From a virus, in IMG/VR virus record IMGVR_UViG_3300044675_005311, positions 8,653 through 72,652 of that record: a stretch of DNA of 64,000 nt. One strand, given 5' to 3'. Below the pieces are notes generated by a model. It did not search any database, was not told the origin of the DNA, and was given only the letters and a program-made list of their open reading frames with translations. This document shows positions 4,851 through 30,409 of this stretch, piece by piece (within the stretch, counting starts at the first letter, position 1; every line of letters begins with the position of its first letter). The translations under genes and the position numbers were made by a program.

Positions 4851-4869
4851 AAAACCACCTCCCTAAAAT

Positions 4870-9585: not shown

Positions 9586-12500
9586 ATGGTTAAAAAATAT
9601 TTAAAGGGTGGCAAAAGCGAGGGTATGTCGCTAAGTGAAGTTGCAAAAGTTCACAATATGAATGCCGAGCAATTAAGACCCCAACTTCAAAAGGGAATTA
9701 AGCACGAACTTGAACACACGGACAAGATAACCGATGCACGAAGAATTGCCCTAGACCATTTGGTAGAGTTCCCCGATTATTACGACCGCTTGGATAAGAT
9801 TGAAAAGATGCACTTGGGCGGTGATATGTCAAAACACTTAGCACCCAACGGGAAACCTAGTAACCTTACACACGAGCAATGGCACTTGGTACGCACACCC
9901 GAATTTAAGAATTGGTTTGGGGATTGGGAAAACGACCCAAAGAACGCGAGTAAGGTTGTAGATGATAATGGTGAGCCGTTAGTGGTTTATAGAGGGGATA
10001 ATGCCAATGCTAAAAAAGGATTTGTTTTCAAAACGGGTTTCAATAGAATGGGATTTATTAATAAAGATAGATTGCCTAATCAATATTTCCATTATTTTGT
10101 AAACAACTATGATGTGGCTTTAGGTTATGGGCAAAATCAAATAGAAAGCCATAACGAAAAAGTTGAGGAAACGGGGAAAGGTAAATTGTGGGAAGCAAAA
10201 GTGACACCTTACTTTTTAAATATTCGGAATCTAATAGATATTACGCCTAATAATCCATCATTTCCCACTTTTAAAGAATTTGAGAATGAATTAAAAAATG
10301 AAATGGGGGAAGAGTGGTTTCAACATTGGAAATATCAACACCCTTATAATTATGGAACACGAATAAGCAATAGTTATTTGAATAAATTGTTTGAAGACAA
10401 GTTGGGTAAAGATTATTTAGAAGATAGGTACATTTCTAAATGGCAAAAGGAAGGATTCGCAAATAATAAAACAAATAAAGATTCATATGAATTTTTTATT
10501 GAATTTAAAAATAGGAGTTCTTCTAGCGATATTCTTAATAAAGTAGTTCGTAGTATGTTAGAAAAGAATGTTGATGGTCTTGTGTTTTTGGAATTAACTC
10601 ATTGGGATGGTGGATTTTGGGGCAATTATAAAAAATATGAATCGGGGGAATTAAAATATGATTACAAAAGATGGATAGAAAAGCCAAAAGTGTTTGCGAC
10701 TTTAAATTCCAATCAAATCAAGTTAGCCGATGGCACGAACACTACATTCGATGGTGAGAACCTCGATATTAGATATAAGCGTGGTGGACGCACAATATCG
10801 CAAACACCCGCACCCAAGTCGGATAGAGTCGTTGGTAGCAAAACAAACCCAAAAGGGAGTGCTAGTGATAGTAAACTAGGGAAATCAATTAAGTTCAACG
10901 ATAGCCTAGAAAAAGCCATCCAAAACAAAGTGGATGCGTATAACGAAAAGCATTCGAGCGACAAAGTGAGTTTGTCAACGGCTAAAGCGATTGTAAGGCG
11001 CGGTATGGGTGCATATTCGACATCACATAGACCAACCATAAGCGGAGGTGCGCCTAATAGTCGCCAAGCGTGGGGATTGGCTAGATTGAATAAGTTCTTG
11101 CTAAAAAAGGCGGGAGTGAAAGTGAAAAGTGCTTATATTCAAGATGATGATTTGTTGAAGTACGCCAATGGTGGCGAAGTAGTCGCAAAAAATGAGGATA
11201 TTCGTAGTAATTTTAATACAATGGACAAAGAAGTAAAACACACTATGGGAAAAGCGGGTGGCTATTTAGTTGGTCGTCGTCACACCGAAGGCGGTATAAA
11301 GGCAATGAACAAAGCAACGGGACAACCTTTGGAAATGGAGGGCGGTGAAGTTGTAATCACGCGCAATGCCGTGTCGGATTCAAAGACGAGAGAGTTTGAA
11401 GGGCAAATGCTAACAAACCGCGAAATTTTGTCAAAAATCAACGAGAGTGGTGGTGGTGTTTCTTTTGAAGACGGCGGTGAGGTGATGGTATGTGGCAACC
11501 AATACAACTATGGGGGTACTCTTATGTCCGACCACGATATATTGCATCAAATGGCCGTTGGTGGCGAATTAGATGATATGAATGAAATGGAGTTTGAGTA
11601 TGGCGGTGATGTATCGGATTTCAAACTAAAGAATAAGATTGTATTTCCAATCAACGATGTAGATAGCGCATATTATGTAAACATTTTTGAAGACCCTATG
11701 GACTTACAAATATTTAAGGTTGATGTAAGCGTTAGAGGTAGTGGAAGACCTATTTTTAAGGGATTTACAAAATGGTCAAAAGATGAGTTCGTATCGAAGA
11801 GAAGTTATCAATTCTACAACCGAAAAGATTTTTTGACTCTCATTGAACCGCAGGCGCAGACTTATGGGGTGATAACTCCAAGACCATTTACCCAAATACC
11901 AAAAAAATCTATGCTTATACCTAGGATGCCAAATACGAGGGCTATGTATGATAGGTTTACTTCAATTTTGGACGTTGGGATGCAAAATGTGCCATCTCAA
12001 TATAATACCGACGCTAAAACTAAATTTAATTGGCTTCTTGGTAATCCTACTTTCCAAGAGAATATTATCGAGTTTTTTGATGAGTGGGCAATACAAGAGC
12101 CGAACTTTATTTATGAAGAGGGTGTCAAAAAGAAAGTTGTCCGCGCTAAAAAAGAAGATAAGTTCCAATATGGTATTGAGTCTATAAAGTTTGGTAAAAG
12201 TTGGGAGGATGAATTGAAGCCTTACAACAATAAACTTGTAAAGAATGATGGTCAAAATTCATTGGTAAATTTACTTACAAAAGTAATTAAAGAATTTTAT
12301 CTAACCGATTTAACTAATCCTAATTTAAAATTATATGAAGATAGGACGATGGAAATACCCGTAAAAGAATTATCATTAATTCAAAAAAATGGGGGTGTTA
12401 AAATGGATTATGGTATAACGGCGGTTGGTTTGCGTAATATAGAAATGAGAACCACCGACCCCACAAGAAATAAATTACTTAATAAAAAATCGGGTTACAA

Positions 12501-14256
12501 TATTAAATTAGTCATAGATAATATTGAAGATTTAGGTGGCGCAAATATTTATTACTACCTATTTGATAAAATGGGTTATCAATATGGTAGCGGGGAATCT
12601 ACTTGGCAACAATGGTTTAAAAATGACAATATTGATTTTAACATAAAACTTTCTTTGGATGACTATTGTAGGGTGGTTGGGTATCTTTTGGCTAGATATT
12701 GTTATGAAAATGATTTACCCTCTATAAGACCAATATACAATATATCCGAAGAGCCTTTGATGATTGAGGATGTAAAAAATGTATTGGAATTTGATGACAC
12801 GGATTTAAACGTATATCAAGGGAGTCAATTTGGAGCGTGGCTTGCCATTTGTGTGCTTTATTATAGAGCCAATTATGTGAGCCAAACATCAAAGGCTAAA
12901 ACGAGCGCGGATGTCCGTATTGCCCAAAGTTTGAAAGTTGGTGATAAGGTTGAAATTTCCGAGCAAGAAATGAATGCAATTGGTTTTGATGGATTAGATG
13001 AGAATGGCGAATTGTTGAAAGGAGAGGTAATTGGAATCCGTTCCGTACCCGCAATGATGCGACCCGTAAATCCCGAAGGCAAAATGTACACGATTCGGTA
13101 TTATGTACAAGACCCCAATGGGACTCTTAAAAACGATTGGGAGGGCAAAGATTTGGTATTGCTAGAGCCTAGTGATGTTGTACAATTGGAAGGAGAGCCA
13201 ACGAGTACTAAAAAACAACCCGTTGGTAAAAACAAAAAAGCCTTGGGTAACTTGAGTGAGTTGGATAAAAATATTTACGACTTGCAATATCTTATTTCAA
13301 TGACTTCGGATTTTGACTTTGAGGTAAAGTTACAATTACGTCAACAATTGACCGAGTTCCAAAAGTTGAAAGATATTATGTATGCTTCCGAAAATTCCGA
13401 ACAATTGATGAAGACTACAAGTCCTAATTATGACGGCAAATACGCGGTCGCCATTATTGAAACGATGTTTAATGCCGATAGTATCACGCTAGATGAAAGA
13501 CCCAACTATTCACTTCCTAAAGCGGATGGATTTCAACCCAATGGCAACGAAACTTTATTGAATCAAACCAACTTCAATCTTATTCAAACACCAATGTTCA
13601 AAGAGTGGTTCGGTGATTATTTGAATGCGTATGATTTCAAAGGATTGAGCGGTTATGATAATATCATTCCCGTAAGTAAAACATTGACGGATGGGTATGA
13701 GCCATTGGTCGTTTATCAAGGATTAGGGAGGGTGTTTGAAAGACAAAGGTTTGACTCTTTCCCAACTTCTTATTTTGCGGTGAATCCCAATTATGCGGAA
13801 TGGTTTGCAACTACAAAAGGACAACGCACTCAAACCGATGGGTATGTGCTACCTTTCTTTTTGAATGTTAGAAACCCTTTAGATTTTACCTATTTTGGAA
13901 TTGACAAAGTAGCACCGAAAGACTTCTTTGATTACCTATTTGTCAAGACGGGTCAAACACCCGAACAACTAGGATTTGATGCTAGGTTCTTGCAACCAAA
14001 TGTGCCACCGATGGAAATATGGGCATATATTAGAAACTCCCCAAATGCAATTACGGCTATTGCAAAGCAAGGTATTTACGATGGATTTCATTTTTATGAA
14101 AATAACCCACAAGCGAGTGGCAATCAATATCAAACCGAAGTATGGACTACGTTCTTTTCAAATCAAGCAAAACTTGCAAGTGACCAACGAAGCAAAATGT
14201 TATATTCCGCCAACCAAGGTTTCTTAATGGCTAAAGGAGGCTTAGTAAAAAAATAA
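9586..14256 (+). CDS. Large polyvalent protein: DUF5661-like, ART-PolyVal-like ADP-ribosyltransferase x2, other modules, xxGG linkers
   Basis: GIKHELEH...ALDHL...DYY; two copies of F(K)xWFGD...EPLVVYxG...FLNxRN...DG...NQxK; RRGMGAY...HRP...AWGLARLN; GRRHTEGGI...EMEGGEVVI. Confidence 0.75.
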   Translation: MVKKYLKGGKSEGMSLSEVAKVHNMNAEQLRPQLQKGIKHELEHTDKITDARRIALDHLVEFPDYYDRLDKIEKMHLGGDMSKHLAPNGKPSNLTHEQWHLVRTPEFKNWFGDWENDPKNASKVVDDNGEPLVVYRGDNANAKKGFVFKTGFNRMGFINKDRLPNQYFHYFVNNYDVALGYGQNQIESHNEKVEETGKGKLWEAKVTPYFLNIRNLIDITPNNPSFPTFKEFENELKNEMGEEWFQHWKYQHPYNYGTRISNSYLNKLFEDKLGKDYLEDRYISKWQKEGFANNKTNKDSYEFFIEFKNRSSSSDILNKVVRSMLEKNVDGLVFLELTHWDGGFWGNYKKYESGELKYDYKRWIEKPKVFATLNSNQIKLADGTNTTFDGENLDIRYKRGGRTISQTPAPKSDRVVGSKTNPKGSASDSKLGKSIKFNDSLEKAIQNKVDAYNEKHSSDKVSLSTAKAIVRRGMGAYSTSHRPTISGGAPNSRQAWGLARLNKFLLKKAGVKVKSAYIQDDDLLKYANGGEVVAKNEDIRSNFNTMDKEVKHTMGKAGGYLVGRRHTEGGIKAMNKATGQPLEMEGGEVVITRNAVSDSKTREFEGQMLTNREILSKINESGGGVSFEDGGEVMVCGNQYNYGGTLMSDHDILHQMAVGGELDDMNEMEFEYGGDVSDFKLKNKIVFPINDVDSAYYVNIFEDPMDLQIFKVDVSVRGSGRPIFKGFTKWSKDEFVSKRSYQFYNRKDFLTLIEPQAQTYGVITPRPFTQIPKKSMLIPRMPNTRAMYDRFTSILDVGMQNVPSQYNTDAKTKFNWLLGNPTFQENIIEFFDEWAIQEPNFIYEEGVKKKVVRAKKEDKFQYGIESIKFGKSWEDELKPYNNKLVKNDGQNSLVNLLTKVIKEFYLTDLTNPNLKLYEDRTMEIPVKELSLIQKNGGVKMDYGITAVGLRNIEMRTTDPTRNKLLNKKSGYNIKLVIDNIEDLGGANIYYYLFDKMGYQYGSGESTWQQWFKNDNIDFNIKLSLDDYCRVVGYLLARYCYENDLPSIRPIYNISEEPLMIEDVKNVLEFDDTDLNVYQGSQFGAWLAICVLYYRANYVSQTSKAKTSADVRIAQSLKVGDKVEISEQEMNAIGFDGLDENGELLKGEVIGIRSVPAMMRPVNPEGKMYTIRYYVQDPNGTLKNDWEGKDLVLLEPSDVVQLEGEPTSTKKQPVGKNKKALGNLSELDKNIYDLQYLISMTSDFDFEVKLQLRQQLTEFQKLKDIMYASENSEQLMKTTSPNYDGKYAVAIIETMFNADSITLDERPNYSLPKADGFQPNGNETLLNQTNFNLIQTPMFKEWFGDYLNAYDFKGLSGYDNIIPVSKTLTDGYEPLVVYQGLGRVFERQRFDSFPTSYFAVNPNYAEWFATTKGQRTQTDGYVLPFFLNVRNPLDFTYFGIDKVAPKDFFDYLFVKTGQTPEQLGFDARFLQPNVPPMEIWAYIRNSPNAITAIAKQGIYDGFHFYENNPQASGNQYQTEVWTTFFSNQAKLASDQRSKMLYSANQGFLMAKGGLVKK

Positions 14257-14259
14257 ATT

Positions 14260-16656
14260 ATGTTACTAGATAAAAACAATATCGAGTCGGCTATCGTATC
14301 GTACACCCTTGATGGGTTTTCAATGACGGCGAAAGTATGGACTTATGACAACAAGGCTACAATTTTTGTTCTTGACAAAGACGCAAAGTATAATCAAGAC
14401 TTTTACTATGTCCTCAAGGGCGGTGCGCCCGATGCGGGAACTAGCGTTGAATCACTAAATGCCGAGGTATTTAGCAATCCATTTGATGCGTATAATAGGT
14501 TTCAAGATTTATTGAATGAGCAAGATTCTCAAACGCCACCACCGCCACCACCACCCGAAGACCAAAAGATACCAATTATCTTAAAGACCAAAAAGACCAA
14601 CGAATTTGAAATTCGCGAAGTTAATGGTTTAATGGAGGTCGGTGATGATGTCTTGGGTAATGGATTTATTCAAGAAGACAAAAAAATAAATTTCAAAAGT
14701 GAAGATGTTTTTGAAACTCAAATTTTTATTGCGGGGGAATCTACGGAGGCGATATTAATTAAAGCACCTCAATTAGATACTAATGGTAAGGATGCTTATT
14801 TTCTTATCCCAAAACAACCACAACCGCCCGAACCACAAACAATACTTCTTAAAAACCCTACTACGAACGAAGTTCAACTTAGAGAGGTGAATGAGAGTGG
14901 CGTTGTCGGTACTCAAAATATGGGTAATGGTTTCATTGTTGACCCTACCCTAATTAACCTTGCTAGTGAGGACACGTTTACAACTCAATTGTACGTTGGG
15001 GGACAACCTATGGATGTTACGTTGATTAGAAATGCGTCGATGGACACAAATGGTATGGATGCTTATGTGATGTCACAATCACCACCACCACCACCACCAC
15101 CGCCAAAACAAACTATTGTATTAAAGAATCCTACTACCAACGAAGTTCAACTTAGAGAGGTTGATGAAAATGGTGTAGTGGAAAGTCAAAATATGGGTAA
15201 TGCTTTCATTGTTCAACCAATGAGGATGGACTTAGCAAGTGAGGACACGTTTACTACTCAATTATATTTTGCGGGACAACCGATGGATGTTAATTTAGTT
15301 AGAAACGCATCATTTGACACGGATGGTATGGATGCCTATATGATGTCCGAAACACCACCACCCGAAGAGAAAAATGTAATTCTAAAAAACCCTCTTACAA
15401 ATGAAGTTCAAATTCGTGAGGTCGATGATAACAATGTCGTAAGTAACCAAATCAAAGCAAACGGATTTTTACTAGCACCAAGTCGCGTTAATTTAAGTAG
15501 CGACCCCACTTTTCAAACTCAATTGTATGTAAATGGACAACCAAGCGATGTAGAATTGGTTAGAACGCCATCGTTCGACACCGATGGTATGGATGCTTAT
15601 TCAATATCCGCAACTCCTCCACCCGAAGAGAAAAATGTAATTCTAAAAAACCCATTATCAAATCAAGTCCAAATTCGCGAGGTAGATGATAACAATGTCG
15701 TTAGCAATCAAATCAAAGCAAACGGATTTATCGTTCAAAATGGAGTTATGAGATTGGCTAGCGAGAATCAATTTGACACTCAATTGTATATCAATTCACA
15801 ATCCAATGATGTCAAGTTGGAAAGAACGCCATCGCTTGACACCGATGGTATGGATGCCTATCTTGTAGCAAGCAATGAAAAAACTAGCATTATCTTAAAA
15901 AATCCCGCCACTAATGAAGTTCAAATTAGGGAAGTTGATGAAGATGGTAATGTTACAAATGAAATTTTGGGTAATGGATTTATCGTACAACCAATGAGAA
16001 CACCGCTTGTTAGTGAAGATGAATTTGACACCCAATTATATATCAATGGTCAATCTAGTGATGTAAAATTGATTAAATCTTCGTCGTTTGATACCGATGG
16101 TTTGGATGCTTATCTTATCGAAGGTGATGGTGAGCCGAAAGAGAAAAAGCGTACAATTTTATTGAAAGATAAAACAACGAATGAGGGTCAATTTAGGGAA
16201 TTACAAGAAGATGGCGAGATAGGTAATGATATTTTAGCACAAGCATTTATTACCCAACCAAACCGAATGAATCTTGCAAGTGAAGACCGATTTGAAACGC
16301 AATTGTATGTGCAAGGTGAAACTTTGGAAGCGGTTTTAATCAAAAATACACTTTACGACAAAGATGGTATGGATGGTTATTCGGTTATGGTAGAGGGAGA
16401 TAAAAAAGACCCTACGGGGAAAAGTGGAGGCCCTCCACCCGATATTGAAAATGAAATTTTAAGCGATAGGGTTCGTATTATAAGTGAAGTAAGTGGTATT
16501 GACCAAGATATAGTAAAAAATAACTTTAGAAATGTTAATTTAGCGGTGAATTTCTTATCGGGAATAAATTTCAAAGAATTGCAAAATCGTTTGAACACCG
16601 ACAAGACCGCATACCAATTAGCGCAAGAGGTTGCACAAGAAATAAGAAATTCGTAA
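14260..16656 (+). CDS. Protein with seven tandem ~85-90-aa beta-rich repeats and poly-Pro linkers
   Basis: Repeat ILKNPxTNEVQ(I/L)REV...GNGFI...F.TQLY..GQ...DTDGMDAY. Confidence 0.8.
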   Translation: MLLDKNNIESAIVSYTLDGFSMTAKVWTYDNKATIFVLDKDAKYNQDFYYVLKGGAPDAGTSVESLNAEVFSNPFDAYNRFQDLLNEQDSQTPPPPPPPEDQKIPIILKTKKTNEFEIREVNGLMEVGDDVLGNGFIQEDKKINFKSEDVFETQIFIAGESTEAILIKAPQLDTNGKDAYFLIPKQPQPPEPQTILLKNPTTNEVQLREVNESGVVGTQNMGNGFIVDPTLINLASEDTFTTQLYVGGQPMDVTLIRNASMDTNGMDAYVMSQSPPPPPPPPKQTIVLKNPTTNEVQLREVDENGVVESQNMGNAFIVQPMRMDLASEDTFTTQLYFAGQPMDVNLVRNASFDTDGMDAYMMSETPPPEEKNVILKNPLTNEVQIREVDDNNVVSNQIKANGFLLAPSRVNLSSDPTFQTQLYVNGQPSDVELVRTPSFDTDGMDAYSISATPPPEEKNVILKNPLSNQVQIREVDDNNVVSNQIKANGFIVQNGVMRLASENQFDTQLYINSQSNDVKLERTPSLDTDGMDAYLVASNEKTSIILKNPATNEVQIREVDEDGNVTNEILGNGFIVQPMRTPLVSEDEFDTQLYINGQSSDVKLIKSSSFDTDGLDAYLIEGDGEPKEKKRTILLKDKTTNEGQFRELQEDGEIGNDILAQAFITQPNRMNLASEDRFETQLYVQGETLEAVLIKNTLYDKDGMDGYSVMVEGDKKDPTGKSGGPPPDIENEILSDRVRIISEVSGIDQDIVKNNFRNVNLAVNFLSGINFKELQNRLNTDKTAYQLAQEVAQEIRNS
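14572..16395 (+). repeat. Seven-fold intragenic tandem repeat (~260-285 bp units)
   Basis: DNA-level similarity, e.g. CCCGAAGAGAAAAATGTAATTCTAAAAAACCC at about 15361 and 15622. Confidence 0.8.
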
Positions 16657-16673
16657 AAAGTAAAAAAACACAA

Positions 16674-18065
16674 ATGGATAATCAATCAAACATAGCGAGA
16701 TTAGAGGATTTGGCAAAAAATTCTCCCGTTCCTTTAGTTCGTGAACAAGCACAAAAAGAATTAGACAAACTTGCCTCCATAGGTAGCGTTCAAGTTCAAT
16801 CCGTAAATGCGGGTGTAACGGGTTTAGACCCCGATGTACAAGCCGTTTTGGATGCCTTGAATATGGCCGTGCAAGGGGGTGGAGTAGCCAACATCAATGA
16901 TATTCGCCAAGTCGTAATAGATGAGTTAGCAAAACGAAAAATCAATTTCAATGATTTGTCCGATAGCCTTAAAGCATTGCTTAATTCTACTCGTAAAGTA
17001 GAATTGACCATTCGTAATATTGCCTCGGTTCAAACTACCACAACGACAAGTAATGATTTCTTGACGCGTCCTATCATTCAAAAGATTTTGAGTGATATGC
17101 AAGCGGAGAACAACGTGTATTTGTATGGTGGCGCGGGTACGGGAAAGACATTTAGTGCGGGGGGTATTGCCAAATTGTTGGGTTGGTCAATCATTACAAT
17201 CAATTGTAACCAATTTACATCGCCAATTGATATTATCGGTGGTCAAACCATTGATGGTTATCAAGAGGGTAAATTCACTATGGCGTGGTCGAATGAAATT
17301 ATTGACGACAACGGCAATATGAAAAAAGTAGATGGTTGCGTATTGCTATTGGATGAGTTGCCAAAAATTGACCCCAACACGGCGGGTTTGTTGAACGAAG
17401 GTTTAGCCAAAATCAAAGAATACGACTATGACCCGAATACGGGTACACGAATTCCTCCAAGCATTTTGAATGGTAGGGGCGAGAGAAAATACTTGGGTAA
17501 TTGTTTCATAATGGCTGCGGGTAACGTACCACTAAATACCATTGACCCCGATTACGAAGCCAACTTTAAGCAAGATTTGTCTTTGCAAGATAGATTCATC
17601 GGTAGTACATATAAAGTGTTTGTGGATTACTCTTATGAGTTTAGTTCAATTATGAAAGGTTATGCGTTCATTTGGATTTTTGGCACAAAACTTCGTGAGG
17701 CTATCATTCGTTTGAATGCAACAAACCAAGCGTTTGTTTCTATTCGTTTGATGCAAAACTTAAAGGCTACTTATGATGTTTATCGTATTGAAAAAGAGAA
17801 AAATGATAAGGGTATGGCGACGACAATTACAAGCCCGAAAACAATCATAGACTCTCTTAATACTTTCTTTGAATTGTTCAAACCATCCACCCGTTCCGCA
17901 CTATTAGCCGAATTGGATATTGACGGATTTAAGCGCGTTGTAGCCGAAAAAGATAAAATGCCGTTTGACAAAAAAGCACCTGACTTTAACACCCCATCGG
18001 AGGTGCAAGAGGCACAACAAATGATTTCCAATTACGAAGCGACACAACTTTCTAGAGTTATCTAA
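16674..18065 (+). CDS. MoxR/CbbQ-like AAA+ ATPase
   Basis: Walker A GGAGTGKT, Walker B LLLDE, AAGN sensor, QDLSLQDRF Arg finger, SIR. Confidence 0.85.
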   Translation: MDNQSNIARLEDLAKNSPVPLVREQAQKELDKLASIGSVQVQSVNAGVTGLDPDVQAVLDALNMAVQGGGVANINDIRQVVIDELAKRKINFNDLSDSLKALLNSTRKVELTIRNIASVQTTTTTSNDFLTRPIIQKILSDMQAENNVYLYGGAGTGKTFSAGGIAKLLGWSIITINCNQFTSPIDIIGGQTIDGYQEGKFTMAWSNEIIDDNGNMKKVDGCVLLLDELPKIDPNTAGLLNEGLAKIKEYDYDPNTGTRIPPSILNGRGERKYLGNCFIMAAGNVPLNTIDPDYEANFKQDLSLQDRFIGSTYKVFVDYSYEFSSIMKGYAFIWIFGTKLREAIIRLNATNQAFVSIRLMQNLKATYDVYRIEKEKNDKGMATTITSPKTIIDSLNTFFELFKPSTRSALLAELDIDGFKRVVAEKDKMPFDKKAPDFNTPSEVQEAQQMISNYEATQLSRVI

Positions 18066-19714
18066 TGGGATTTTTTAGTAGTTGGAGAGGCTTGCCCGTA
18101 TTTTGTTGGGCGTATGACACGCCCGAAGCGTGGCAAGATGCGTTTGGCAAAGATTTGTATAAAGATAGAATAAAGGATTACTCTAAAGTTTATGATGCCG
18201 AAATAGCACCTATTCTTTTTGAAATGGGAATGAAGTTTAACTTGGGTGGTGAGCAAGACAAAAGTCGTCTTGAAACAACATCAAGGCCCATAGGTGTATT
18301 TGATTTTTCGTTGGCGAGTAAAGGACTATATCGTGTTCAAGAATATTACTCTCAAGAACTTGCCATAGACCATCCCAATTTATTTGATACATTTGAATTG
18401 CCGTCGGGAATTGTGCCACCCAATTTAGTCGACAATATTACGATAGGCGGTGTTAAGAATTTTGTTTATAACCACAATGGTAAAATGTATGTTCTTGACA
18501 AAAGGCAAAAAGGCACAACCGCTATCAATGATGGAGAAAAAGATGCTAAATTAAAATTTGCCACATCTACTAAAGACGTTTATTTGAAATTTAAACGTGT
18601 TGGTGGTAAAGTAAAGTATGCGGAAATTTATTCTTTATTTTACTATACAAGCCTTGATGGTAATGATGAATTTGCTATAAGACACCTACCCGCATTGATG
18701 ACGGCCGAATACTTTGAAAGTATGGGTATTAAGACACGTGTTTATATGACAAGATTTTGCAACCCCGAAGAAACGGGTACATTACGTCAAAATGATTTGC
18801 TAACAAATGCCGAGTTACCTATGTACACTCAACAAGTAAATTATAGTGGCTCGTCGCGATTTGACGACGAGATTATTTTCGCACCGATTATAGTTAAAGA
18901 TTTTGGTCAAGAACTCGATTGGAAGTCTTGTTTAGTGGTTAGTCAAAATGACTCGCACGCAATTTACGATGGCGTAGTAAAGAATATGTTGAGGAACGAA
19001 ATTGATGGTAGAATTATTTCACCTTATGGTAGCCCCGACCAAACTCAAGAAAGATATCTAGAAGCATTTGCAAGGTACAAGGAGAAATACCAATTGTATG
19101 TAAAAGCGGGGATTTGGAAGAGTAAAGAAATTCAAGAGGACTCTCAATTATTGTTTCACTCACAAAGTATTAGACGACATTTGTCGGATGTTAGGGATAG
19201 TATGCAACGCGCATACTCCAATAATAATAAAAATCAAGTACGAAGGTGGAAAGACATTCTTGAAGGAAGCGTAGTTGCAAGAACTTTTTTTGAATGGTGG
19301 ATGAAAACCGCTGCGGGTCGTTGTCGTGACACCCTTATGATTATGAATGCAAAAGAGCCACGCAAAGAAATGCAAAAGGTCATTGATGAATTAAAGGCTA
19401 GAATTGATGACATTAATTCTTATTTGCTAATTGTTGTTCCTCAAACCTATGCAACTAATAATGCGAAAAATGATTTAGAGAAAGAAATTGCTAGAATAAT
19501 AGTCCAAAATGATTTCGTTAAAGAAATTCTTCAAAGTGAGGGATTGATGATGGATTTTAATGGAGAATACAAATATGAAACCTATTTGAACCGAATTATT
19601 ACCGACGCTACTACCTATGCGAGTAACCCTTTGTTTGCAACCGATGATGATACGATAGAGCGATTGAATGAAAGAGCGGATTTATTGTATAACGACATTA
19701 AGTTAAGGAGTTAA
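18065..19714 (+). CDS. Probable AAA+ partner protein (degenerate VWA-like?)
   Basis: TAATG-coupled to MoxR AAA; AEYFESMGIKTRVY segment; no clear MIDAS motif. Confidence 0.45.
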   Translation: MGFFSSWRGLPVFCWAYDTPEAWQDAFGKDLYKDRIKDYSKVYDAEIAPILFEMGMKFNLGGEQDKSRLETTSRPIGVFDFSLASKGLYRVQEYYSQELAIDHPNLFDTFELPSGIVPPNLVDNITIGGVKNFVYNHNGKMYVLDKRQKGTTAINDGEKDAKLKFATSTKDVYLKFKRVGGKVKYAEIYSLFYYTSLDGNDEFAIRHLPALMTAEYFESMGIKTRVYMTRFCNPEETGTLRQNDLLTNAELPMYTQQVNYSGSSRFDDEIIFAPIIVKDFGQELDWKSCLVVSQNDSHAIYDGVVKNMLRNEIDGRIISPYGSPDQTQERYLEAFARYKEKYQLYVKAGIWKSKEIQEDSQLLFHSQSIRRHLSDVRDSMQRAYSNNNKNQVRRWKDILEGSVVARTFFEWWMKTAAGRCRDTLMIMNAKEPRKEMQKVIDELKARIDDINSYLLIVVPQTYATNNAKNDLEKEIARIIVQNDFVKEILQSEGLMMDFNGEYKYETYLNRIITDATTYASNPLFATDDDTIERLNERADLLYNDIKLRS

Positions 19715-19732
19715 AAAATATAATTAAACACT

Positions 19733-20044
19733 ATGGAAATTACCCAAGTACAAGAATTAGGATTAAAAAAGTTGATGGCAAATATTGCCACATTTTCTAA
19801 TCTATATGGTAGCATTACCAATTTGATGATAATGACCAACCCAAGTTTTTCCACATCAATTTTTGTGAAATATGATAAGCAATTTGGATTGGTAAAAGAT
19901 AGAAGGCTAGAAATAAACATTGTCGAAATAAACGATAGGGGTGAAATTGTGGTTTTGAACGATGTATTTAAAGGGATATATGAGCGGTACACATTCTTAG
20001 GTGAGTGCTTACCGATTGAAGCAAACGAACTAATTGTAATGTAA
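19733..20044 (+). CDS. Hypothetical protein
   Basis: In-operon ORF with A-rich upstream. Confidence 0.6.
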   Translation: MEITQVQELGLKKLMANIATFSNLYGSITNLMIMTNPSFSTSIFVKYDKQFGLVKDRRLEINIVEINDRGEIVVLNDVFKGIYERYTFLGECLPIEANELIVM

Positions 20045-21828
20045 TGGACGTAATAGAAGCATTGGGAGGTTGGAGAAATGTCAACCAAGAAAAACTAGAA
20101 CAAATCAAGGTGGATAACCCACCCTTGTATAATGCCATTACAAAAGCAATTAACTTGTTGGCAAAAAAGTATGGGGGCGAAGATATTGTAATTGAAAAAC
20201 CAATGGAGGTAGTTGAGGAAAAGGCAACTACTATTGAAAGCGAAGTGGAATCCGATTATGCCTTTCTTAAAAGAATGGAAATATTAAATTTAACCAAAGG
20301 AGAATATATTTTTAGGAGTGATATTGTCGACTCTATGATGAGAGAGATTAATGTAGATTTTATTTCCGTTAGAGAAAAGTATGAATCATCCGTGCAACAA
20401 AAACTTGACGATTTAGATGCGCGGGGTTTAGTATCAGAATTATCACTTGACATATATAAAATTAGTAATGCGGGTAAAGCATTGATTGATAGTTTTGAAT
20501 TGAAAAACAAACAACTTGAGGAATTAGGGCCGAGTGACGAAGACCTCAAATTGGAAATATTGCAACGGATGGCGGATTATTATGATGGTAATGAATTTCA
20601 ATCATTAAGCCAAGATGATATAATTACAAACGCCGTAAAACACCAATTTGATATTCCATCAAATAAATATTTTGGTATTGTCGTAAAATTATTACGAGAT
20701 GGATTTGTTGAAAAAGACCCAAATGGGCCAACGGATTCTATTAGCCTTACAATGGAAGGGTATGATAAATCACAAGGTTGGTTTGAAGTAAATCCAAACG
20801 AAGAAGAACCAAGTGAAAATTTGGATGTCCCATACTTGCGAATGATTCAAAAATTGAAAGAGAGAAAAGGTGATTGGGTAACTATTGAAGATATTGTAGC
20901 GGAAAAGGGTGTTCCCAATATGCTTACAAGACAAGAATATATCGATGCTCAAAAGACTATATTGGATGATTTAGAGAAAAGAGATTTGGTAAATAGAGTA
21001 GCGAACGAATATATTTTAAGTTATAATGGTCAAAAATTATTAGCCTTAAACCCCGAAATAGAAACCCCAATAGAAGAACCTGCTCAAGCGCAATTAAGCG
21101 ATTTACTAATAAGCATTTTAGAAGCGGTGCAAGAAGTGAGTGCAATAAAACGTGGGGGTGGTTTTGTTTCAATAAAAGAAATTTGGCCATACAATATGGG
21201 AATAATGCCTATAAATTATGCGGTTTATCAAATGGATTTGACTACCCCAAGTTTACAACAAGATTTGGCAATTTTATATTTGGGAGGATATTTGGAACAA
21301 ACAAATTATGGAGGGACTAATGAACCAAAAAATTATAGGTATCGTTTGAGCCAAAAAGGTAAGGACTTTTTGAACTTTGTAAATGTTTTGAAAAAAACAC
21401 AACCAACACCGCCAACAACCACAACCAATTTACGACCATCGCCTACCGATAGCGCAACTATGTACCCTACGGGAAGAATTAAAGTCGGTAACGATGCAAA
21501 TCTATGGAAAGTTACGGAGAACAAGAATGGTGTGAAGCGTTGGGTAAAGGTTGGTGGTATTCCGAGTGAATTACCCGACCCAACGAATGTAGATTTAGGT
21601 ACTTACACAATGGACAAAGCGGGTCAAACTTATAGAGTTTCGCTTGTTAAAGGCAATAAAAAAGAATGGGTAGAAGTTGACTCAATTGCCAACCCTACAC
21701 CCGTAGAAACACCCATTTCCGAAATTGACGAAGATGAAGTAGATTTGGATATTTTAGAACAACAATTAAATGACGACTCTTTGGAGTTTGATTTAACCGA
21801 CGAAGACTTAGACAATTTAGAATTTTAA
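20044..21828 (+). CDS. Multi winged-helix protein with RPSP...GND...W...NG.KRW module and acidic tail
   Basis: Four segments ending L...G(L/F/Y)V/L...Y.(I/L)(S/T)..G; LRPSPTDSATMYPTGRIKVGNDANLWKV. Confidence 0.6.
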   Translation: MDVIEALGGWRNVNQEKLEQIKVDNPPLYNAITKAINLLAKKYGGEDIVIEKPMEVVEEKATTIESEVESDYAFLKRMEILNLTKGEYIFRSDIVDSMMREINVDFISVREKYESSVQQKLDDLDARGLVSELSLDIYKISNAGKALIDSFELKNKQLEELGPSDEDLKLEILQRMADYYDGNEFQSLSQDDIITNAVKHQFDIPSNKYFGIVVKLLRDGFVEKDPNGPTDSISLTMEGYDKSQGWFEVNPNEEEPSENLDVPYLRMIQKLKERKGDWVTIEDIVAEKGVPNMLTRQEYIDAQKTILDDLEKRDLVNRVANEYILSYNGQKLLALNPEIETPIEEPAQAQLSDLLISILEAVQEVSAIKRGGGFVSIKEIWPYNMGIMPINYAVYQMDLTTPSLQQDLAILYLGGYLEQTNYGGTNEPKNYRYRLSQKGKDFLNFVNVLKKTQPTPPTTTTNLRPSPTDSATMYPTGRIKVGNDANLWKVTENKNGVKRWVKVGGIPSELPDPTNVDLGTYTMDKAGQTYRVSLVKGNKKEWVEVDSIANPTPVETPISEIDEDEVDLDILEQQLNDDSLEFDLTDEDLDNLEF

Positions 21829-21832
21829 ACCG

Positions 21833-24800
21833 ATGAAAGAATCAATAAAAAAGAAGTTCGACTCTATCGACAAATCAAAAATAAAGGTAGAATCAACAAA
21901 AGAATTTTTAGGAAAACTTGAGAAAGGACTCAATAGTAAAACACAAGAAAATGCTGACAAGGCGGAAGCATTGCTAGACAAATTCATTGCCCAAGCAAAG
22001 GCAAAGAACGCGGATATTTTCGTATCTAATAAGCCCGCACCTACACTTACACCTACCGCTAAGAAAAAGGCCAACCAAGTCGTTAAAAGCAAATTGGATT
22101 CCCTTATGGACACCATTGCTAATGACCCGTTGTTGAAGGACTTTAACAACTCGCGTAGGACAAAAGGCGGTGGAAAGAGCGACCCATTGATTGATAGCGA
22201 AAGAAAGGCTATTCAAAGTGGCCCTAGGATATCTAAGCAAGGTTGGAAGAACCAATATGGTAAAAGCACGGGTGGTCGTAAGTACTACGAGTACCGCGAA
22301 AACCGCATTGATAGAAAAGCACCAAATTACGGAAGTAGGCCGTGGCTAAAAGAGGGCGGATTCATTCACCCTAGCGATGCCAATGCCGACAAATACGTCG
22401 TGGTTGAAATCAAAGCGGATGGTTCAAGAAGAGAACACAACCATTTCGGTGATTTGGAAACGGCTAGGATGTTTGCGTCATTGAAGCGTGAGTTTTTACC
22501 AAAGGGTAGCCAATTGATGATTGAGGACAAAAACGGAAAGAATTTGTATCGTAGTTTCAAGAGTGGTGGCTATATGGCCGATGGTGGAATGATGGCTAAA
22601 GGTGGTGTAATTGAGGAGGGTGATGATGTTTTTGTAAAACCCGAAAAATTGAATGCGGAAGTAGTTCGTATTACGGGGGAAAATGTTGTAGTAGAATTTT
22701 ATAATAGAAGACCCGAAGGTGGTGAGAAGAGAGGGAATTATAAAATTAAAGACCTTAAAAAGATGGCCAATGGTGGTATGATGGCAAAGGGTGGAAAGGC
22801 TTATTATTTAAAGCCTCAGGAGAATATTGACAAGTTGTTTGAGCGTCAGAAAAAACGACTCGCTGATATGAAACGAAATGATGACCAATTGATGTTGTTG
22901 CAAGGCATAAATTACTTAAATAAAAAAAATGATGAAGATGAAGAAAAGTATGTCATTTTGTTTTTTGAGTCTGAAACACCATTTACTCGATTTGATTTAG
23001 AGTATCATAGAGAAAAATTAATCAAATTAGGGTATTTAGCAGATATAGATGAAACATATTTGGTAACACCGAAAGGTGAAGAGTATTTAAAACAACATAA
23101 TGAAAAAGAGTTGGCGAGAAAAATGGCCAATGGTGGAATGATGGCCAAAGGTGGTGTAATTGAGGAGGGTGATGATGTTTTTGTAAAACCCGAAAAATTG
23201 AATGCGGAAGTAGTTCGTATTACGGGGGAAAATGTTGTAGTAGAATTTTACGATAGAAGACCCGAAGGTGGTGAGAAGAGAGGAAATTATAAAATTAAAG
23301 ACCTAAAGAAATTGGCCAATGGTGGTATGATGGCCGATGGTGGCAAAGTTAGATGGCAAGATGTTTATGTTGGTGACAACGCATTGGTGATAGCCGAAAA
23401 CAAGATGGGTATGGTAGTGAAGCCTTATGGCCGTAGATTCCATTTGAAGTTCCCCGATGGTTCGGAAAAAACCTATTCGGCGGAAGAGTTGGAGTTTTTC
23501 AAGGATGAGGAATTTGCCAAAGGTGGTTATACCAACAAACGAAATGTACTTAGTTTGGTTGTCAAAAACCCAAATAAGAATGGGATTAAAAAATATTTGT
23601 CTATTAATCCAAAAGACTTTTTAGATGGATTGCACGAATATGCCAAAGGTGGTAAATTAACCGATGATTATACTTACATCAAGCGTAGCGAAGTTGAACA
23701 CGTCATATATCGCGATAGCAATGGTAAAGAGCAATTAGATTTCAAACCCAAGAATGGATTTTGGGTAAGCAAAAAGGCACTTGTTGATGCGGGTATGAAT
23801 GAAACAAAAGCCAAGTTTGATGCTAAAGAGGTTGCCAACGAATTAACTGCTTTATCCAACAAAGCGTGGGACACTTTATCAATTCAAAGCGGAAGTGAAA
23901 TTTATGCCTCCGACGATTTGCAAGAGAATTTAGCCGATGAATATCGAAAAGTAGGTATTGATAAAATTTACGGACAACTTACCCAACCCGAACGCAAAAA
24001 AGTAAGCGCGGTACTTACCGATGAGAACGAGCATAGTTTGAGAAACTACCTTGCGTTACGCGGTTATAATGGCGAAGCGGAATTTAAGAATTATGCAAAA
24101 ATGTACGACGAGTCATTTGCAAAATTTGGATATAGGTCAAATTGGAATCCCAAAAATGTAGATTTAAAACTTGGGTCATTTGCCAAAGGTGGTATGATGA
24201 CCGATGATGAAGGAAATTCAATTAATTTAAAAGTTGGAGATAAAGTTGTTGAATACAAAAGACCAAGTTCGGATAAACCGAAAAAACAATATGGTGGTCA
24301 AGGTGAGATAATTTCAATTAATGGCGCAATGGCTAAAGTATTTTTTGATTCAACGAACTATGAAAAATTTTATCCTTTGAAAGACCTTAAAAAGATGGCT
24401 AATGGTGGAATGATGGCCAAAGGCGGGACTATTGCCGATGGAGAAAAACTACCCGAAGATATGGGTAGGTACTTTATCAAGACTAGCAAGACCAAAGTGG
24501 TGAATATGTCCGATTTGATTCCGTTGCGCAAACGTGCTACGGGTATCGCTAATGCCGAGAAAAATATGAAGATGGCTTACGATGGAGAAATGGATAAGCG
24601 TAAGCCTATCACTATCTACAAGAGCCAACGCAAGTATCGCATAATGGATGGTAACTCTACCTATGCGGTTGCAAAAGCAAACGGATGGGAAACCATTTGG
24701 GCCGAGATTGTCAAGAACCCCAATATGAAAAACGGACTTAAACGCACCGATGATATTTTTTCAAGAGCAAAATCAATTCGTAAAGAAGGAGAGGCTTGGA

Positions 24801-24835
24801 AAGATGCGTTACAACGTGCAAAAGCAATGAAATAA
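21833..24835 (+). CDS. Modular protein with about 15 [MFYL]xxGG linkers; KOW/SH3-like, wHTH and C-terminal ParB-like modules
   Basis: MADGG/MAKGG/MANGG/FAKGG/YAKGG; IEEGDDVFV, LKVGDKVV; RKPITIY...YRIMDGNSTYAVAK. Confidence 0.8.
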   Translation: MKESIKKKFDSIDKSKIKVESTKEFLGKLEKGLNSKTQENADKAEALLDKFIAQAKAKNADIFVSNKPAPTLTPTAKKKANQVVKSKLDSLMDTIANDPLLKDFNNSRRTKGGGKSDPLIDSERKAIQSGPRISKQGWKNQYGKSTGGRKYYEYRENRIDRKAPNYGSRPWLKEGGFIHPSDANADKYVVVEIKADGSRREHNHFGDLETARMFASLKREFLPKGSQLMIEDKNGKNLYRSFKSGGYMADGGMMAKGGVIEEGDDVFVKPEKLNAEVVRITGENVVVEFYNRRPEGGEKRGNYKIKDLKKMANGGMMAKGGKAYYLKPQENIDKLFERQKKRLADMKRNDDQLMLLQGINYLNKKNDEDEEKYVILFFESETPFTRFDLEYHREKLIKLGYLADIDETYLVTPKGEEYLKQHNEKELARKMANGGMMAKGGVIEEGDDVFVKPEKLNAEVVRITGENVVVEFYDRRPEGGEKRGNYKIKDLKKLANGGMMADGGKVRWQDVYVGDNALVIAENKMGMVVKPYGRRFHLKFPDGSEKTYSAEELEFFKDEEFAKGGYTNKRNVLSLVVKNPNKNGIKKYLSINPKDFLDGLHEYAKGGKLTDDYTYIKRSEVEHVIYRDSNGKEQLDFKPKNGFWVSKKALVDAGMNETKAKFDAKEVANELTALSNKAWDTLSIQSGSEIYASDDLQENLADEYRKVGIDKIYGQLTQPERKKVSAVLTDENEHSLRNYLALRGYNGEAEFKNYAKMYDESFAKFGYRSNWNPKNVDLKLGSFAKGGMMTDDEGNSINLKVGDKVVEYKRPSSDKPKKQYGGQGEIISINGAMAKVFFDSTNYEKFYPLKDLKKMANGGMMAKGGTIADGEKLPEDMGRYFIKTSKTKVVNMSDLIPLRKRATGIANAEKNMKMAYDGEMDKRKPITIYKSQRKYRIMDGNSTYAVAKANGWETIWAEIVKNPNMKNGLKRTDDIFSRAKSIRKEGEAWKDALQRAKAMK
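22581..22785 (+). repeat. Direct repeat copy 1 (~205 bp; KOW module with flanking linkers)
   Basis: Near-identical to 23130-23334. Confidence 0.9.
23130..23334 (+). repeat. Direct repeat copy 2
   Basis: Offset 549 bp from copy 1; few, mostly synonymous differences. Confidence 0.9.
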
Positions 24836-25950
24836 TGAAACTATTTACTAAAGCCGACCAAACACTACTACAAAGCCAATGGGGTTTCGGAAGTGACCTT
24901 AAATCCCAAATGGTGTTTGTTAAAATATTCGAGCCTATGCGTAGGGTGTTTTACTATGTAGTGAACCAAGACCCGAACGACCCCGAAAAGATATTCGCGC
25001 TAGAAAAAAGCAATAAGGATGTCAAGTTGGGTTTCTTTCGCAAGAGTGCTATCGAGAATGCCAAATTACCGCCTTACGGATTGCGATTTGAACGCGATAT
25101 GTATTTCAAGCCCGTTTCCGCCCAAGAGTTGTTGGACGGCTTGATAGAGGGTAAGTATTACGCTAAGGGCGGTGAAATCGTTGTGGACATAAACGAAAAG
25201 GTGTACGACAAAGGAAATTACAAAGCAATATTCGGTGACTTCGATAAGGATGGTGTTCCTAACGTAGATGACCCAAACCCGTATAGAAGCGGGGATGAAA
25301 AGTCAATCGAGCAAGTTAGGTTTAGCAAAGTTTTCGCCAAGGTGTTAGACACCAAGATGCAAATGGATAGGCCAATGTATGACATTGTTGAAAAACTAAA
25401 AACAATAGCGCCCAAGGGTTCTAAAATTATCGCTAGGACAAAAACACCTTTTAGCATATTGAATAAGTTGGTCAACAAAAAAATGAATAACATCGAGCCT
25501 AGTATAGCGGGTGACGTGGATGGTTTGACCGACCTAGTGGGAACTACAATCCTAGTAAGCAATTTCCGTTCACTTGACTCTTTGAAGAACAAAATTCTCA
25601 AAGGCGCAATAGGGCAAATATTGGAGTTCAAAGATTATTACGCACATCCAAAAGCGGGGTATATGGCTTACCACTTTATTACTCTTTTCGAGGGCGTGGC
25701 GATAGAAGTTCAAATTAAGACCAAGCGTATGAAACTTTTGAACCAAGCGTCACACTTTGCCTACAAGGAAGAAACATTGGATGCAAAGAAGTTGTTGTAC
25801 TACTCTCAAGTGATGGATAGAGCCGATAAAGGTGATAGAGAAGCCATTCAAGAAGCGAACGATATATTAAGGGATAGGGACAAACTTGCGTATGATTTTT
25901 TCATAAACAAGGCGGAGTATAACCCAAAGAAGCATATTTTTGAAGATTAA
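24835..25950 (+). CDS. DUF2958-like domain fused via YAKGG to RelA/SpoT (small alarmone synthetase) domain
   Basis: N-term ...FERDMYFKP; RTKTPFSILNK, DLVG, GYMAYH, EVQIKT, HFAYK synthetase motifs; start ATG 24835 overlaps upstream TAA. Confidence 0.8.
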   Translation: MKLFTKADQTLLQSQWGFGSDLKSQMVFVKIFEPMRRVFYYVVNQDPNDPEKIFALEKSNKDVKLGFFRKSAIENAKLPPYGLRFERDMYFKPVSAQELLDGLIEGKYYAKGGEIVVDINEKVYDKGNYKAIFGDFDKDGVPNVDDPNPYRSGDEKSIEQVRFSKVFAKVLDTKMQMDRPMYDIVEKLKTIAPKGSKIIARTKTPFSILNKLVNKKMNNIEPSIAGDVDGLTDLVGTTILVSNFRSLDSLKNKILKGAIGQILEFKDYYAHPKAGYMAYHFITLFEGVAIEVQIKTKRMKLLNQASHFAYKEETLDAKKLLYYSQVMDRADKGDREAIQEANDILRDRDKLAYDFFINKAEYNPKKHIFED

Positions 25951-27482: not shown

Positions 27483-27631
27483 CCACAAATCAAAAAACCA
27501 TAGCACTTGTATCGTTCGTCATTTTGGTGGCGGGTGGTTTTGCATATTTTTATTTTCGTAAAGTATCAGTTCCATTGGAGGGCGTGGATAAAAAGGACAT
27601 TGAGGAATTAAAACAAATTAGAATGGTATGA
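27479..27631 (+). CDS. 50-aa N-terminal TM protein (not in ORF track)
   Basis: MTTNQKTIALVSFVILVAGGFAYFYFRK; ATGA overlaps at both ends. Confidence 0.65.
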   Translation: MTTNQKTIALVSFVILVAGGFAYFYFRKVSVPLEGVDKKDIEELKQIRMV

Positions 27632-29914: not shown

Positions 29915-30409
29915 ATGCACAAGATATTCCAAGACATATCGAACGCATCGGAAGGTAGATATTCCAATGGCTTACTCTATGCGGGTGCGGTAGGACTTAT
30001 ATTGTCCGATATTATACCGACCCCCGCCGACGCACTTTACTTTCATAGCGAAAAGCGATTGAGGGATAAGTGGAAAGCGGGAGAGATAACATCCAAGCAA
30101 TATTGGGAGAGAACATCAATGGCCTACTACTTATACAACCCTATTTGGTGGACGTTGGTACTAGGTGCGATGTACTACACTAAAGGCGATGTGAAGCAAA
30201 AAGCAAAAGTTGGTGTCGCTATAATTGGTGTTGGTGCGGTGATAGGAGTTATCTATCGGAACTACACACTAGACATCAAAGGAATCAAAAGAGAAATTAT
30301 CGCCGAAAACGAACCCAAGGTAAACTTTGAGGGTAACAAAAAACCCGTAAAGCCTAATCAATATCGTGGAGTTTTTCGTAGAGGCAACACAATCAAATTC
30401 GTAGCATAA
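29915..30409 (+). CDS. Multi-TM membrane protein
   Basis: Three hydrophobic segments; VNFEG motif. Confidence 0.7.
   Translation: MHKIFQDISNASEGRYSNGLLYAGAVGLILSDIIPTPADALYFHSEKRLRDKWKAGEITSKQYWERTSMAYYLYNPIWWTLVLGAMYYTKGDVKQKAKVGVAIIGVGAVIGVIYRNYTLDIKGIKREIIAENEPKVNFEGNKKPVKPNQYRGVFRRGNTIKFVA

Follow-up and report, generated by a model that had tools for sequence, protein, structure and literature searches.

The DNA described here, referred to below as the window, is a stretch of 64,000 nucleotides with a G+C content of 37-42%. It corresponds to bases 8653-72652 of the 72,652-base linear IMG/VR virus record IMGVR_UViG_3300044675_005311, whose completeness was estimated by CheckV at 86%. Positions are counted from the first base of the window. 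Between 9586 and 25950 it carries three genes, P0001, P0002 and P0003, whose products belong to the class that Iyer (2017) named polyvalent proteins. A short peptide motif ending in Gly-Gly recurs at the borders of their modules and is found also in a small membrane protein (P0124) and at the carboxyl terminus of P0126. This motif is selected at the protein level, occurs far above chance and appears to be undescribed. The proteins that carry it are the following.

9586..14256, plus strand: P0001, polyvalent protein of 1556 amino acids (aa), defined by translation, Pfam and orthologue comparison
21833..24835, plus strand: P0002, 1000-aa 'beads-on-a-string' polyvalent protein, defined by translation, homologues, AlphaFold and fold search
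24835..25950, plus strand: P0003, DUF2958-like domain followed by a RelA/SpoT nucleotidyltransferase; the start is the ATG at 24835, and the upstream TTG at 24796 is also open
30409..30780, plus strand: P0124, small membrane protein with a disordered amino-terminal tail, MASGG and then a transmembrane helix
59542..60594, minus strand: P0126, 350-aa protein without assigned function that ends ...KFKRGGEI before the stop

Translations were scanned with two regular expressions, a loose motif [MFYL]xxGG, the form in which the first-pass annotation of the window had described it, and a strict motif [MFYL]A.GG. The strict motif is present 22 times in the 22,909 aa encoded by the 116 open reading frames (ORFs) of the record, with 1.47 copies expected from composition. 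Shuffling P0002 5000 times gave a mean of 0.095 and a maximum of 2 strict copies, against the 13 observed, and none of 5000 shuffles of P0001 reached its 9 loose copies (shuffle mean 1.85). The copies stand at the places given in the first-pass annotation, and the observation is stronger than it was put there.

A compositional artefact of Gly-rich low-complexity sequence would be the simplest account of such copies. The looser ones at residues 627-674 of P0001 do lie in a Gly-rich stretch, and the tandem DNA pattern, when searched in bacterial genome contigs, retrieved mainly plain Gly-rich repeats (MAGGG runs) of high-GC genomes and gave no host assignment. Against this stand the shuffles, which never approach the observed counts, and the fact that hundreds of divergent homologues keep the motif where they align. 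For the strict motif the chance reading is refuted by the alignment, the shuffles and a control with the motif-free ParB-like domain described below, and it deserves practically no credence. A single YANGG in ORF 40756, not kept in the orthologue of the complete relative G001, may be a chance occurrence. Avoidance of the motif elsewhere in the proteome was also considered and is uninformative, about one strict copy being expected per genome.

P0001 is organized in the order DUF5661, ART-PolyVal, a DUF5824-like module, a Gly-rich segment, a middle part without assignment and a second ADP-ribosyltransferase (ART)-like domain at the carboxyl terminus. Its nine loose copies start at residues 5 (YLKGG), 75 (MHLGG), 397 (YKRGG), 526 (YANGG), 627 (FEDGG), 640 (YNYGG), 656 (MAVGG), 670 (FEYGG) and 1548 (MAKGG).

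9598..9612, plus strand: YLKGG, 4 residues from the amino terminus
9808..9822, plus strand: MHLGG, directly after DUF5661
10774..10788, plus strand: YKRGG, 9 residues past ART-PolyVal, left border of a module that is a gene of its own in relatives
11161..11175, plus strand: YANGG, right border of the same module; aligns with YEVGG near the amino terminus of the next G001 gene
11464..11607, plus strand: FEDGG, YNYGG, MAVGG and FEYGG, looser copies in a Gly-rich stretch, within the segment that has no Pfam match
14227..14241, plus strand: MAKGG, 4 residues before the stop

The domain ends given by Pfam abut these copies. DUF5661 is matched at residues 18-74, next to MHLGG at 75; ART-PolyVal (PF18760) covers 126-388 (46.1 bits, curated cut-off 31.2) and is followed by YKRGG at 397; a weak DUF5824 match at 436-510 precedes YANGG at 526. 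The module between YKRGG and YANGG (residues 398/400-524) is encoded by a stand-alone gene both in G001 (128 aa, aligned 4-128) and in the related locus L005 (139 aa, aligned 2-139), which indicates that a motif-bounded module can function as a protein of its own. P0001 ends ...FLMAKGGLVKK and its G001 orthologue ...FLKSGGTI.

Two observations concern individual segments of P0001. The Gly-rich segment at 11176-11685 (residues 531-700; …HTEGGIKA…EMEGGEVVI…) is conserved in relatives and has no Pfam match; a protein language model gave for it a weak lead to crAss_CARG1, the crassvirus cargo protein 1 domain, with a score of 0.84, below the 0.9 threshold. DUF5661 was considered as a mini-metallopeptidase and rejected: P0001 has the sequence HELEH, but HExxH is found in 0/121 homologues, DUF5661 carriers included.

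P0002 has a constant amino-terminal module, a series of shuffled small modules and a carboxyl-terminal ParB/sulfiredoxin-like domain. As described in the first-pass annotation, it carries about 15 copies of the motif, often doubled: 15 are loose and 13 strict, and they include five doubled pairs at a spacing of 6 residues.

22346..22360, plus strand: LKEGG, loose copy, with G175 almost invariant in alignment A1
22556..22606, plus strand: FKSGG-Y-MADGG-M-MAKGG, triple copy
22763..22795, plus strand: MANGG-M-MAKGG, doubled copy
23123..23155, plus strand: MANGG-M-MAKGG, doubled copy inside a 224-nt duplication
23312..23344, plus strand: LANGG-M-MADGG, doubled copy
23513..23527, plus strand: FAKGG, residues 561-565, in a confidence dip (559-567) between two confident small domains
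23639..23653, plus strand: YAKGG, residues 603-607, in a confidence dip (599-608); G606 is invariant in 74 sequences
24179..24193, plus strand: FAKGG, residues 783-787, where the confident domain 609-779 ends; both glycines, G786 and G787, are nearly invariant
24395..24427, plus strand: MANGG-M-MAKGG, residues 855-865, shortly ahead of the ParB-like domain (871-1000), with G858 invariant

The AlphaFold model of P0002, built from a 74-sequence alignment, has a mean predicted local distance difference test (pLDDT) value of 58.8 and shows confident domains at residues 1-60, 187-240, 510-558, 568-598, 609-779 and 871-1000. Copies of the motif occupy the pLDDT dips between them, and the low-pLDDT stretch 780-870 holds both FAKGG 783 and MANGGMMAKGG 855-865. 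Residues 240-505 are modelled with low confidence and the copies there cannot be placed. Together with the Pfam borders of P0001, these dips uphold the earlier observation that the motif sits at domain borders. The only invariant columns of the 74-sequence alignment are the motif glycines G606 and G858, and G607, G786, G787 and G859 are at least 90% conserved.

There is no Pfam match in P0002. Ten unexplained segments, submitted to Pfam at E up to 5, gave nothing credible. Foldseek matches of P0002 are weak (best E 2.2e-3) and point to Tudor/KOW-like barrels, while the carboxyl-terminal domain is matched to ParB/Noc/sulfiredoxin with probability 1.0 and TM scores of 0.53-0.60 to sulfiredoxin. 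The first-pass label ParB-like is therefore reasonable and the label KOW plausible, whereas wHTH is tentative; the support for KOW and wHTH comes from weak fold matches.

P0003 follows immediately, its ATG sharing one base with the stop codon of P0002 (24833-24837). Translation and Pfam, which gives RelA_SpoT and a weak DUF2958 match, place YAKGG between the two domains, where it had been noted before. P0003 orthologues have FADGG at the same place in G001 and one copy each in the related loci L001-L004. Some metagenomic homologues (P0103, P0105) also have DUF2958 modules joined to other proteins that bear the motif. The first-pass reading of these genes as encoding multi-effector proteins finds support in the Pfam matches to ART-PolyVal, DUF5661, RelA_SpoT and DUF2958. 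The copy of P0003 and two further ones reported earlier and found again outside the polyvalent genes are listed here.

25159..25173, plus strand: YAKGG, between the DUF2958-like and RelA_SpoT domains of P0003
30541..30555, plus strand: MASGG, in the disordered tail of P0124, 15 residues before the transmembrane helix
59551..59565, minus strand: FKRGG, 2 residues before the stop of P0126; the G001 orthologue ends ...KFKRGGQV before the stop

Orthologues of P0124 in three relatives carry MAHGG and MIEGG, MAQGG and MVEGG, or FEEGG and LKAGG, respectively. The copies at carboxyl termini and in the tail of a membrane protein show that the motif is more than a linker.

A word-indexed search with P0002 retrieved 215 proteins, all metagenomic and with mosaic coverage. 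The 120 that are listed, taken together with the three proteins of the window, amount to 125,344 aa and contain [MFYLIW]A.GG 1013 times, or roughly 8 times in every 1000 residues. Since proteins with the motif in common might be favoured by the word index, the ParB-like domain, which is free of the motif, was compared by itself to 1.84 billion representatives by phmmer as a control. This control gave 513 hits, 121 of which, among the 150 listed, have upstream sequence. A copy of [MFYLIW]xxGG is found at most 25 residues upstream of the ParB-like domain in 38/39 of the closest hits and in 8/82 of the more distant ones (strict in 2 of the 8). The motif thus belongs to one phage clade rather than to the domain as such.

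Cutting 121 homologues in silico at the strict motif yields 983 segments that fall in 214 clusters with very narrow length ranges, for example 56 aa (n=69), 55 aa (n=43), 80 aa (n=37), 73 aa (n=32) and 61 aa (n=22). The architecture shared by the homologues consists of a constant amino-terminal module, reordered small modules, a conserved module of 150-400 aa (cluster 1, median 228) and the ParB-like end. Matches between segments of different proteins run end to end in 19,289/50,293 cases (0.384); the fraction falls to 0.244, 0.214 and 0.221 when the cuts are shifted by +20, +30 and -20 residues, respectively. Pfam identifies Zeta_toxin, RelA_SpoT, DUF2958, DUF5661 and one RadC in 38 motif-bearing homologues. 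The complete relative G001 has the same distribution of motif copies as the window.

A logo was made from 735 unique sites, for whose collection Ala was prescribed at position 2, so that the logo carries no measure of the conservation of this Ala. Position 1 is M in 55%, Y in 26%, F in 14% and L in 3% of the sites, I accounts for 0% and V is absent; position 3 is K in 52%, D in 22% and E in 8%. I, M, V or L is found two residues after the Gly-Gly. The motif put forward initially is thus real, and its form is better written [M/Y/F]-A-[K/D/E]-G-G, L being rare at position 1. Spacings between copies peak at 6 residues (124 tandem pairs) and also at 59-62, 66, 78 and 85.

Third codon positions differ among the copies and the glycines are mostly encoded by GGT GGN, not GGAGG, which shows that the signal is the peptide and not a ribosome-binding site. 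A role as Shine-Dalgarno sequence or internal start was tried as an explanation and is excluded by these GGT GGN codons, by the scarcity of Shine-Dalgarno-like sequences (15/116 ORFs) and by the Y and F variants, which cannot start translation. Codon usage is biased: the first Gly is GGT in 58/68 copies from five genomes, compared to a background of about 45%, and the motif Ala is preferentially GCY in the genome of the window and in L005.

This bias belongs to a set of observations made at the DNA level. P0002 contains a direct repeat of 224 nucleotides (22574-22797 and 23123-23346, 94% identical) that spans one small module with its flanking motif pairs, so that four of its copies derive from one duplication and are not independent. 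Copies of the linker DNA are 69-88% identical over 32 nucleotides. The motif might then act without any partner, as a hinge in cis whose hydrophobic residue and Ala cap a module and whose Gly-Gly breaks secondary structure, while its DNA provides homology for shuffling, duplication and gene conversion; its conservation would reflect concerted evolution. The shuffling and duplication of modules at the motif, the duplication bounded by copies, the similarity of the linker DNA and the codon bias all agree with this explanation, as does the fact that no protease or partner was found in the searches made. The phage encodes RecT and a PD-(D/E)XK nuclease, and a RecT-type recombinase could help the shuffling. 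A passive hinge hardly explains, however, why the glycines are invariant across proteins that are only 25-40% identical or why position 1 is restricted to M, Y and F with L, I and V excluded. Synonymous sites vary, and the stretches over which copies are exactly identical in DNA are short. There are also conserved copies at carboxyl termini and in the membrane-protein tail, where no downstream module follows, and a repeat protein of the same genome uses poly-proline linkers instead. A hinge that doubles as a recombination site is, in sum, unlikely.

That repeat protein, of 798 aa, is encoded at 14260-16656, next to P0001. It consists of about seven repeats of ~85 aa joined by poly-proline or PPPEEK linkers; the strict motif is absent from it and neither of its two loose matches is at a repeat junction.

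The invariant Gly-Gly, the restriction of position 1 to M, Y or F, the copies at termini and in a membrane-protein tail and the specificity for one clade argue for a short linear motif that is read by another molecule rather than for a generic linker. Recognition would occur in trans. Two kinds of readers can be envisaged, one that binds the motif and one that cuts at it.

The genes that surround those of the polyvalent proteins bear on the first. Their order is kept in five related viral loci: the ART-polyvalent gene, a variable gene, the AAA_5 ATPase, a gene for a protein of ~550 aa, one or more variable genes and the bead-string polyvalent gene, which is directly followed by the DUF2958-RelA/SpoT gene in 4/5 loci. 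The variable genes in front of the bead-string gene include a 103-aa ORF in three loci (L001-L003) and, in four, a large gene matching the winged helix-turn-helix-like ORF 20044. The window has the following set between P0001 and P0002.

16674..20044, plus strand: AAA_5 (MoxR-type) ATPase, a 549-aa protein and a 103-aa protein, defined by Pfam and synteny

The 549-aa protein has no family match. It is possible that the ATPase and its neighbours are partners of the cargo proteins, their loader or their chaperone.

Proteins rich in the motif are found in other phages as well. The exact doubled MANGGMMAKGG had 0 matches in viral contigs, and a degenerate DNA pattern for the tandem motif found 35 viral-contig loci, several of the same family and others from different phages. 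Two unrelated tailed-phage contigs are informative. L024 encodes at 1703-3010 an acidic disordered protein of 435 aa with 5 copies, located between the genes for the large terminase and the portal and with the major head protein downstream; L037 encodes at 83-1279 a basic disordered protein of 398 aa with 11 copies, upstream of the major head protein. When compared to 50,697 phage records, the L024 protein gave a match over its 40-residue amino-terminal domain only, and PHROGs found nothing for the large motif-bearing ORFs of L013, L023 and L034. Use of the motif may extend more widely among the internal proteins of phages.

These data fit a motif that is not cut and serves as a docking or packaging tag, bound by a virion component or by a loader. 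Candidate binders are the capsid, the portal, a membrane component, or the AAA_5 ATPase with its 549-aa neighbour; the bound cargo would be brought into the particle or kept ready for ejection, and multiple or doubled copies would add avidity. Conserved copies at carboxyl termini and in the membrane-protein tail suit a tag better than a linker, and the tandem copies at a fixed 6-residue spacing, the motif-rich disordered proteins in the head modules of other phages, the presence of the ATPase and 549-aa homologue between polyvalent genes in 5/5 related loci and the lack of a protease in the records searched all point the same way. The passages of PMC10172136 on crassvirus cargo describe its storage and extrusion with no mention of proteolysis, in agreement with such a tag. 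The binding partner and the packaging itself are putative, and a tag leaves unexplained why copies are found at almost every module border and why module borders coincide with gene borders. An uncut tag is rather unlikely on this evidence.

The motif is present at almost every module border, and module borders correspond to those of genes; on these grounds a processing site recognized in trans is the best single reading of the motif, which can be proposed tentatively, the cleavage being putative. The modules of ORFs 9586, 21833 and 24835 would be joined by the motif in disordered linkers, and a phage or host protease of a kind not recognized so far would release them as separate small proteins, either while virions mature or once the cell has received the proteins. 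Somewhat unlikely, on present evidence, is the more specific proposal of a clade of uncultured phages with true polyproteins, in which about a dozen small shuffled modules, possibly with anti-defence or takeover roles, are cut at [M/Y/F]-A-x-G-G by a host protease or one of an unrecognized family and the same code is carried on carboxyl-terminal tails and a membrane protein.

Several observations weigh against processing at the motif. A cleavage site needs neither tandem doubling at a fixed 6-residue spacing (124 cases) nor copies 2-4 residues from a carboxyl terminus. The fused DUF2958 junctions of P0103 and P0105 are devoid of the motif, and it is absent from that of P0145 too. The codon bias leaves room for a contribution of DNA-level processes or common descent. 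Comparison with known Gly-Gly proteases shows a different register: the hydrophobic residue is five and not four positions before the putative cut and is M, Y or F instead of the M, I or L of adenain, and the motif does not match the register of PLpro-type sites. The likeness to adenain sites invoked in the first-pass annotation is consequently loose.

The protease search weighs against processing too. Peptidase families of Pfam were searched in eleven motif-bearing phage records, each family in part of them. The Ulp1- or adenain-like Cys protease anticipated by the first-pass annotation did not emerge: C48 (Ulp1, PF02902) has no match in the record of the window or in G001, G003, G005, G006 and G009, two of which are its relatives, and C5 (adenain, PF00770) has none in the record of the window. 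C39 (PF03412), searched in that record alone, is likewise absent from it. There was no match to S78 in 9 records, the window's own not among them, to S77 and to S49 in 5 records each, or to MPTase-PolyVal (PF18818) in G000, G001, G003, G005 and G006. Two ClpP-like genes were found in five records outside the clade of the window, both in G005. G006, the genome of a complete tailed phage that encodes a protein with 11 copies, had no match to any of the six families for which it was searched. The 38 motif-bearing homologues have no peptidase by Pfam except one RadC-like JAB domain. Most of the phage is dark matter, so that absence from Pfam is weak evidence; divergent proteases could escape it. 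The specific suggestion of a Ulp1 or adenain enzyme is nevertheless removed within the reach of these searches.

The window contains further genes near those of the polyvalent proteins. A YkuD-like protein with an SHGC active-site motif (26904-27482) is the sole Cys/His enzyme candidate seen in their vicinity. It adjoins a protein with lytic-transglycosylase-like motifs recognized by eye (27628-28386), and both are probably cell-wall enzymes. A small HerA/FtsK-like ATPase at 33239-34051 (DUF87 E 9.9e-5, just below the cut-off) is 75% identical in relatives and adjoins a highly conserved protein of 233 aa (34387-35088) with 1697 metagenomic homologues. The AlphaFold core of this protein, residues 57-199, is a single jelly-roll sandwich with weak matches in the PDB (best E 1.3e-3); the jelly-roll candidate P0384, considered for the capsid, has no conserved copy of the motif. 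The product of ORF 32232 (336 aa) looks helical and acidic and gave no lead in the PDB or the Atlas, and sequence searches of the PDB with ORFs 34387, 27628 and 18065 gave nothing useful.

Two clusters of modification enzymes, one at 690-7362 (epimerase, FkbM methyltransferase, C-methyltransferase and two glycosyltransferases) and one at 47087-48752 (sulfotransferase and, one ORF further, APS kinase), suggest an elaborate modification of sugars or DNA. The 1061-aa Gly-rich fibre-like protein encoded at 51489-54674 has as counterpart in G001 an ORF of 5338 aa (52323-68339, L008-L009), in which Gly-Gly occurs 4 times versus 492 expected; this scarcity points to a Gly repeat of a regular, collagen-like type.

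Scans with Pfam or PHROGs covered about 57 of the window's ORFs, and no protease, portal, terminase or capsid protein, including the HK97 type, was recognized among them. Terminase_6N had no match in the four related records searched, two of which are complete. A tblastn search of 50,697 phage records, from which near ones may have been excluded, with P0002 and the AAA_5 ATPase found no cultured relative, and no close relative of P0002 was found among viral contigs. Shine-Dalgarno-like sequences precede 15/116 ORFs and upstream regions are A/T-rich, which can be taken as a hint of a host that probably belongs to the Bacteroidota.

How the domains of polyvalent proteins are separated, packaged and exchanged is unsettled, and a conserved junction peptide offers a testable handle on these questions. 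The motif predicts exact sites of cutting or binding and delimits dozens of modules of 55-85 aa that can be expressed and screened one by one, for example for anti-defence activity. It is also a search key for cargo proteins in the genomes of uncultured phages. If cleavage is true, there is a protease still to be recognized and a polyprotein strategy in phages; the polyprotein reading, if true, would provide a bacterial-virus counterpart of the polyprotein processing of eukaryotic viruses, with a built-in exchange of effector cassettes.

Sites in viral polyproteins characteristically share a short consensus that recurs from one domain border to the next. Adenain recognizes (M/I/L)XGG, with the hydrophobic residue at P4, and the motif resembles its sites in having Gly-Gly with an upstream hydrophobic residue at the borders of precursor parts. 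The pS273R protease of African swine fever virus (ASFV) is described in PMC10308890 as cutting Gly-Gly-X after the second Gly, a rule that the motif obeys only trivially. Both systems differ from the one of the window, where no clan CE protease was found in the records searched and hosts are bacterial. Double-glycine leaders processed by C39/PCAT are also unlike it: the motifs are internal or carboxyl-terminal, and C39 was not found in the record.

Closer to the phage world are the head proteins of T4 and phiKZ. T4 gp21 cuts Alt, internal proteins and scaffold at (L/I)xE, and phiKZ gp175 cuts at (S/A/G)xE. These systems share with the present one a short consensus found in several packaged and injected proteins, among them the ADP-ribosyltransferase Alt, and motif-rich disordered proteins are encoded in the head modules of other phages. 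The consensus itself differs, and S77, S78 and S49 were not found in the records searched for each.

Crassvirus cargo proteins, as presented in the relevant passages of PMC10172136, are stored in the particles of phages of Bacteroidota and extruded partly unfolded; those passages report no motif or processing for them. The likeness consists in large proteins of phages with Bacteroidota hosts, a probable host group here, and in the weak 0.84 lead for P0001 531-700. The differences are that this segment has no Pfam match and that the association of the proteins described here with virions is hypothetical.

The nearest known class is that of the polyvalent proteins, defined in the main text of PMC5512222 as large proteins, encoded by phages and conjugative elements, in which effector domains are strung together. 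That text proposes that they are processed into parts by built-in zincin-like metallopeptidases (MPTase), a hub domain present in about 36% of the family and hence typical, not obligatory. The MPTase domain was not found here in five records, and most modules, in contrast to the known ones, are small (55-85 aa) and belong to no Pfam family. A junction motif is not described in the main text of PMC5512222, where glycine is not mentioned; its online supplement could list one. A literature search for spellings of the motif and for Gly-Gly polyprotein processing in phages, with supplementary files outside its scope, returned nothing on phages. P0001 and P0003 resemble the class in carrying several effector domains, with ART-PolyVal well documented in the former, and ParB-like, RelA/SpoT, DUF2958, Zeta-toxin kinase and RadC domains occur among the homologues. 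Polyvalent proteins are thus an already known class, to which the junction motif appears to be the new part.

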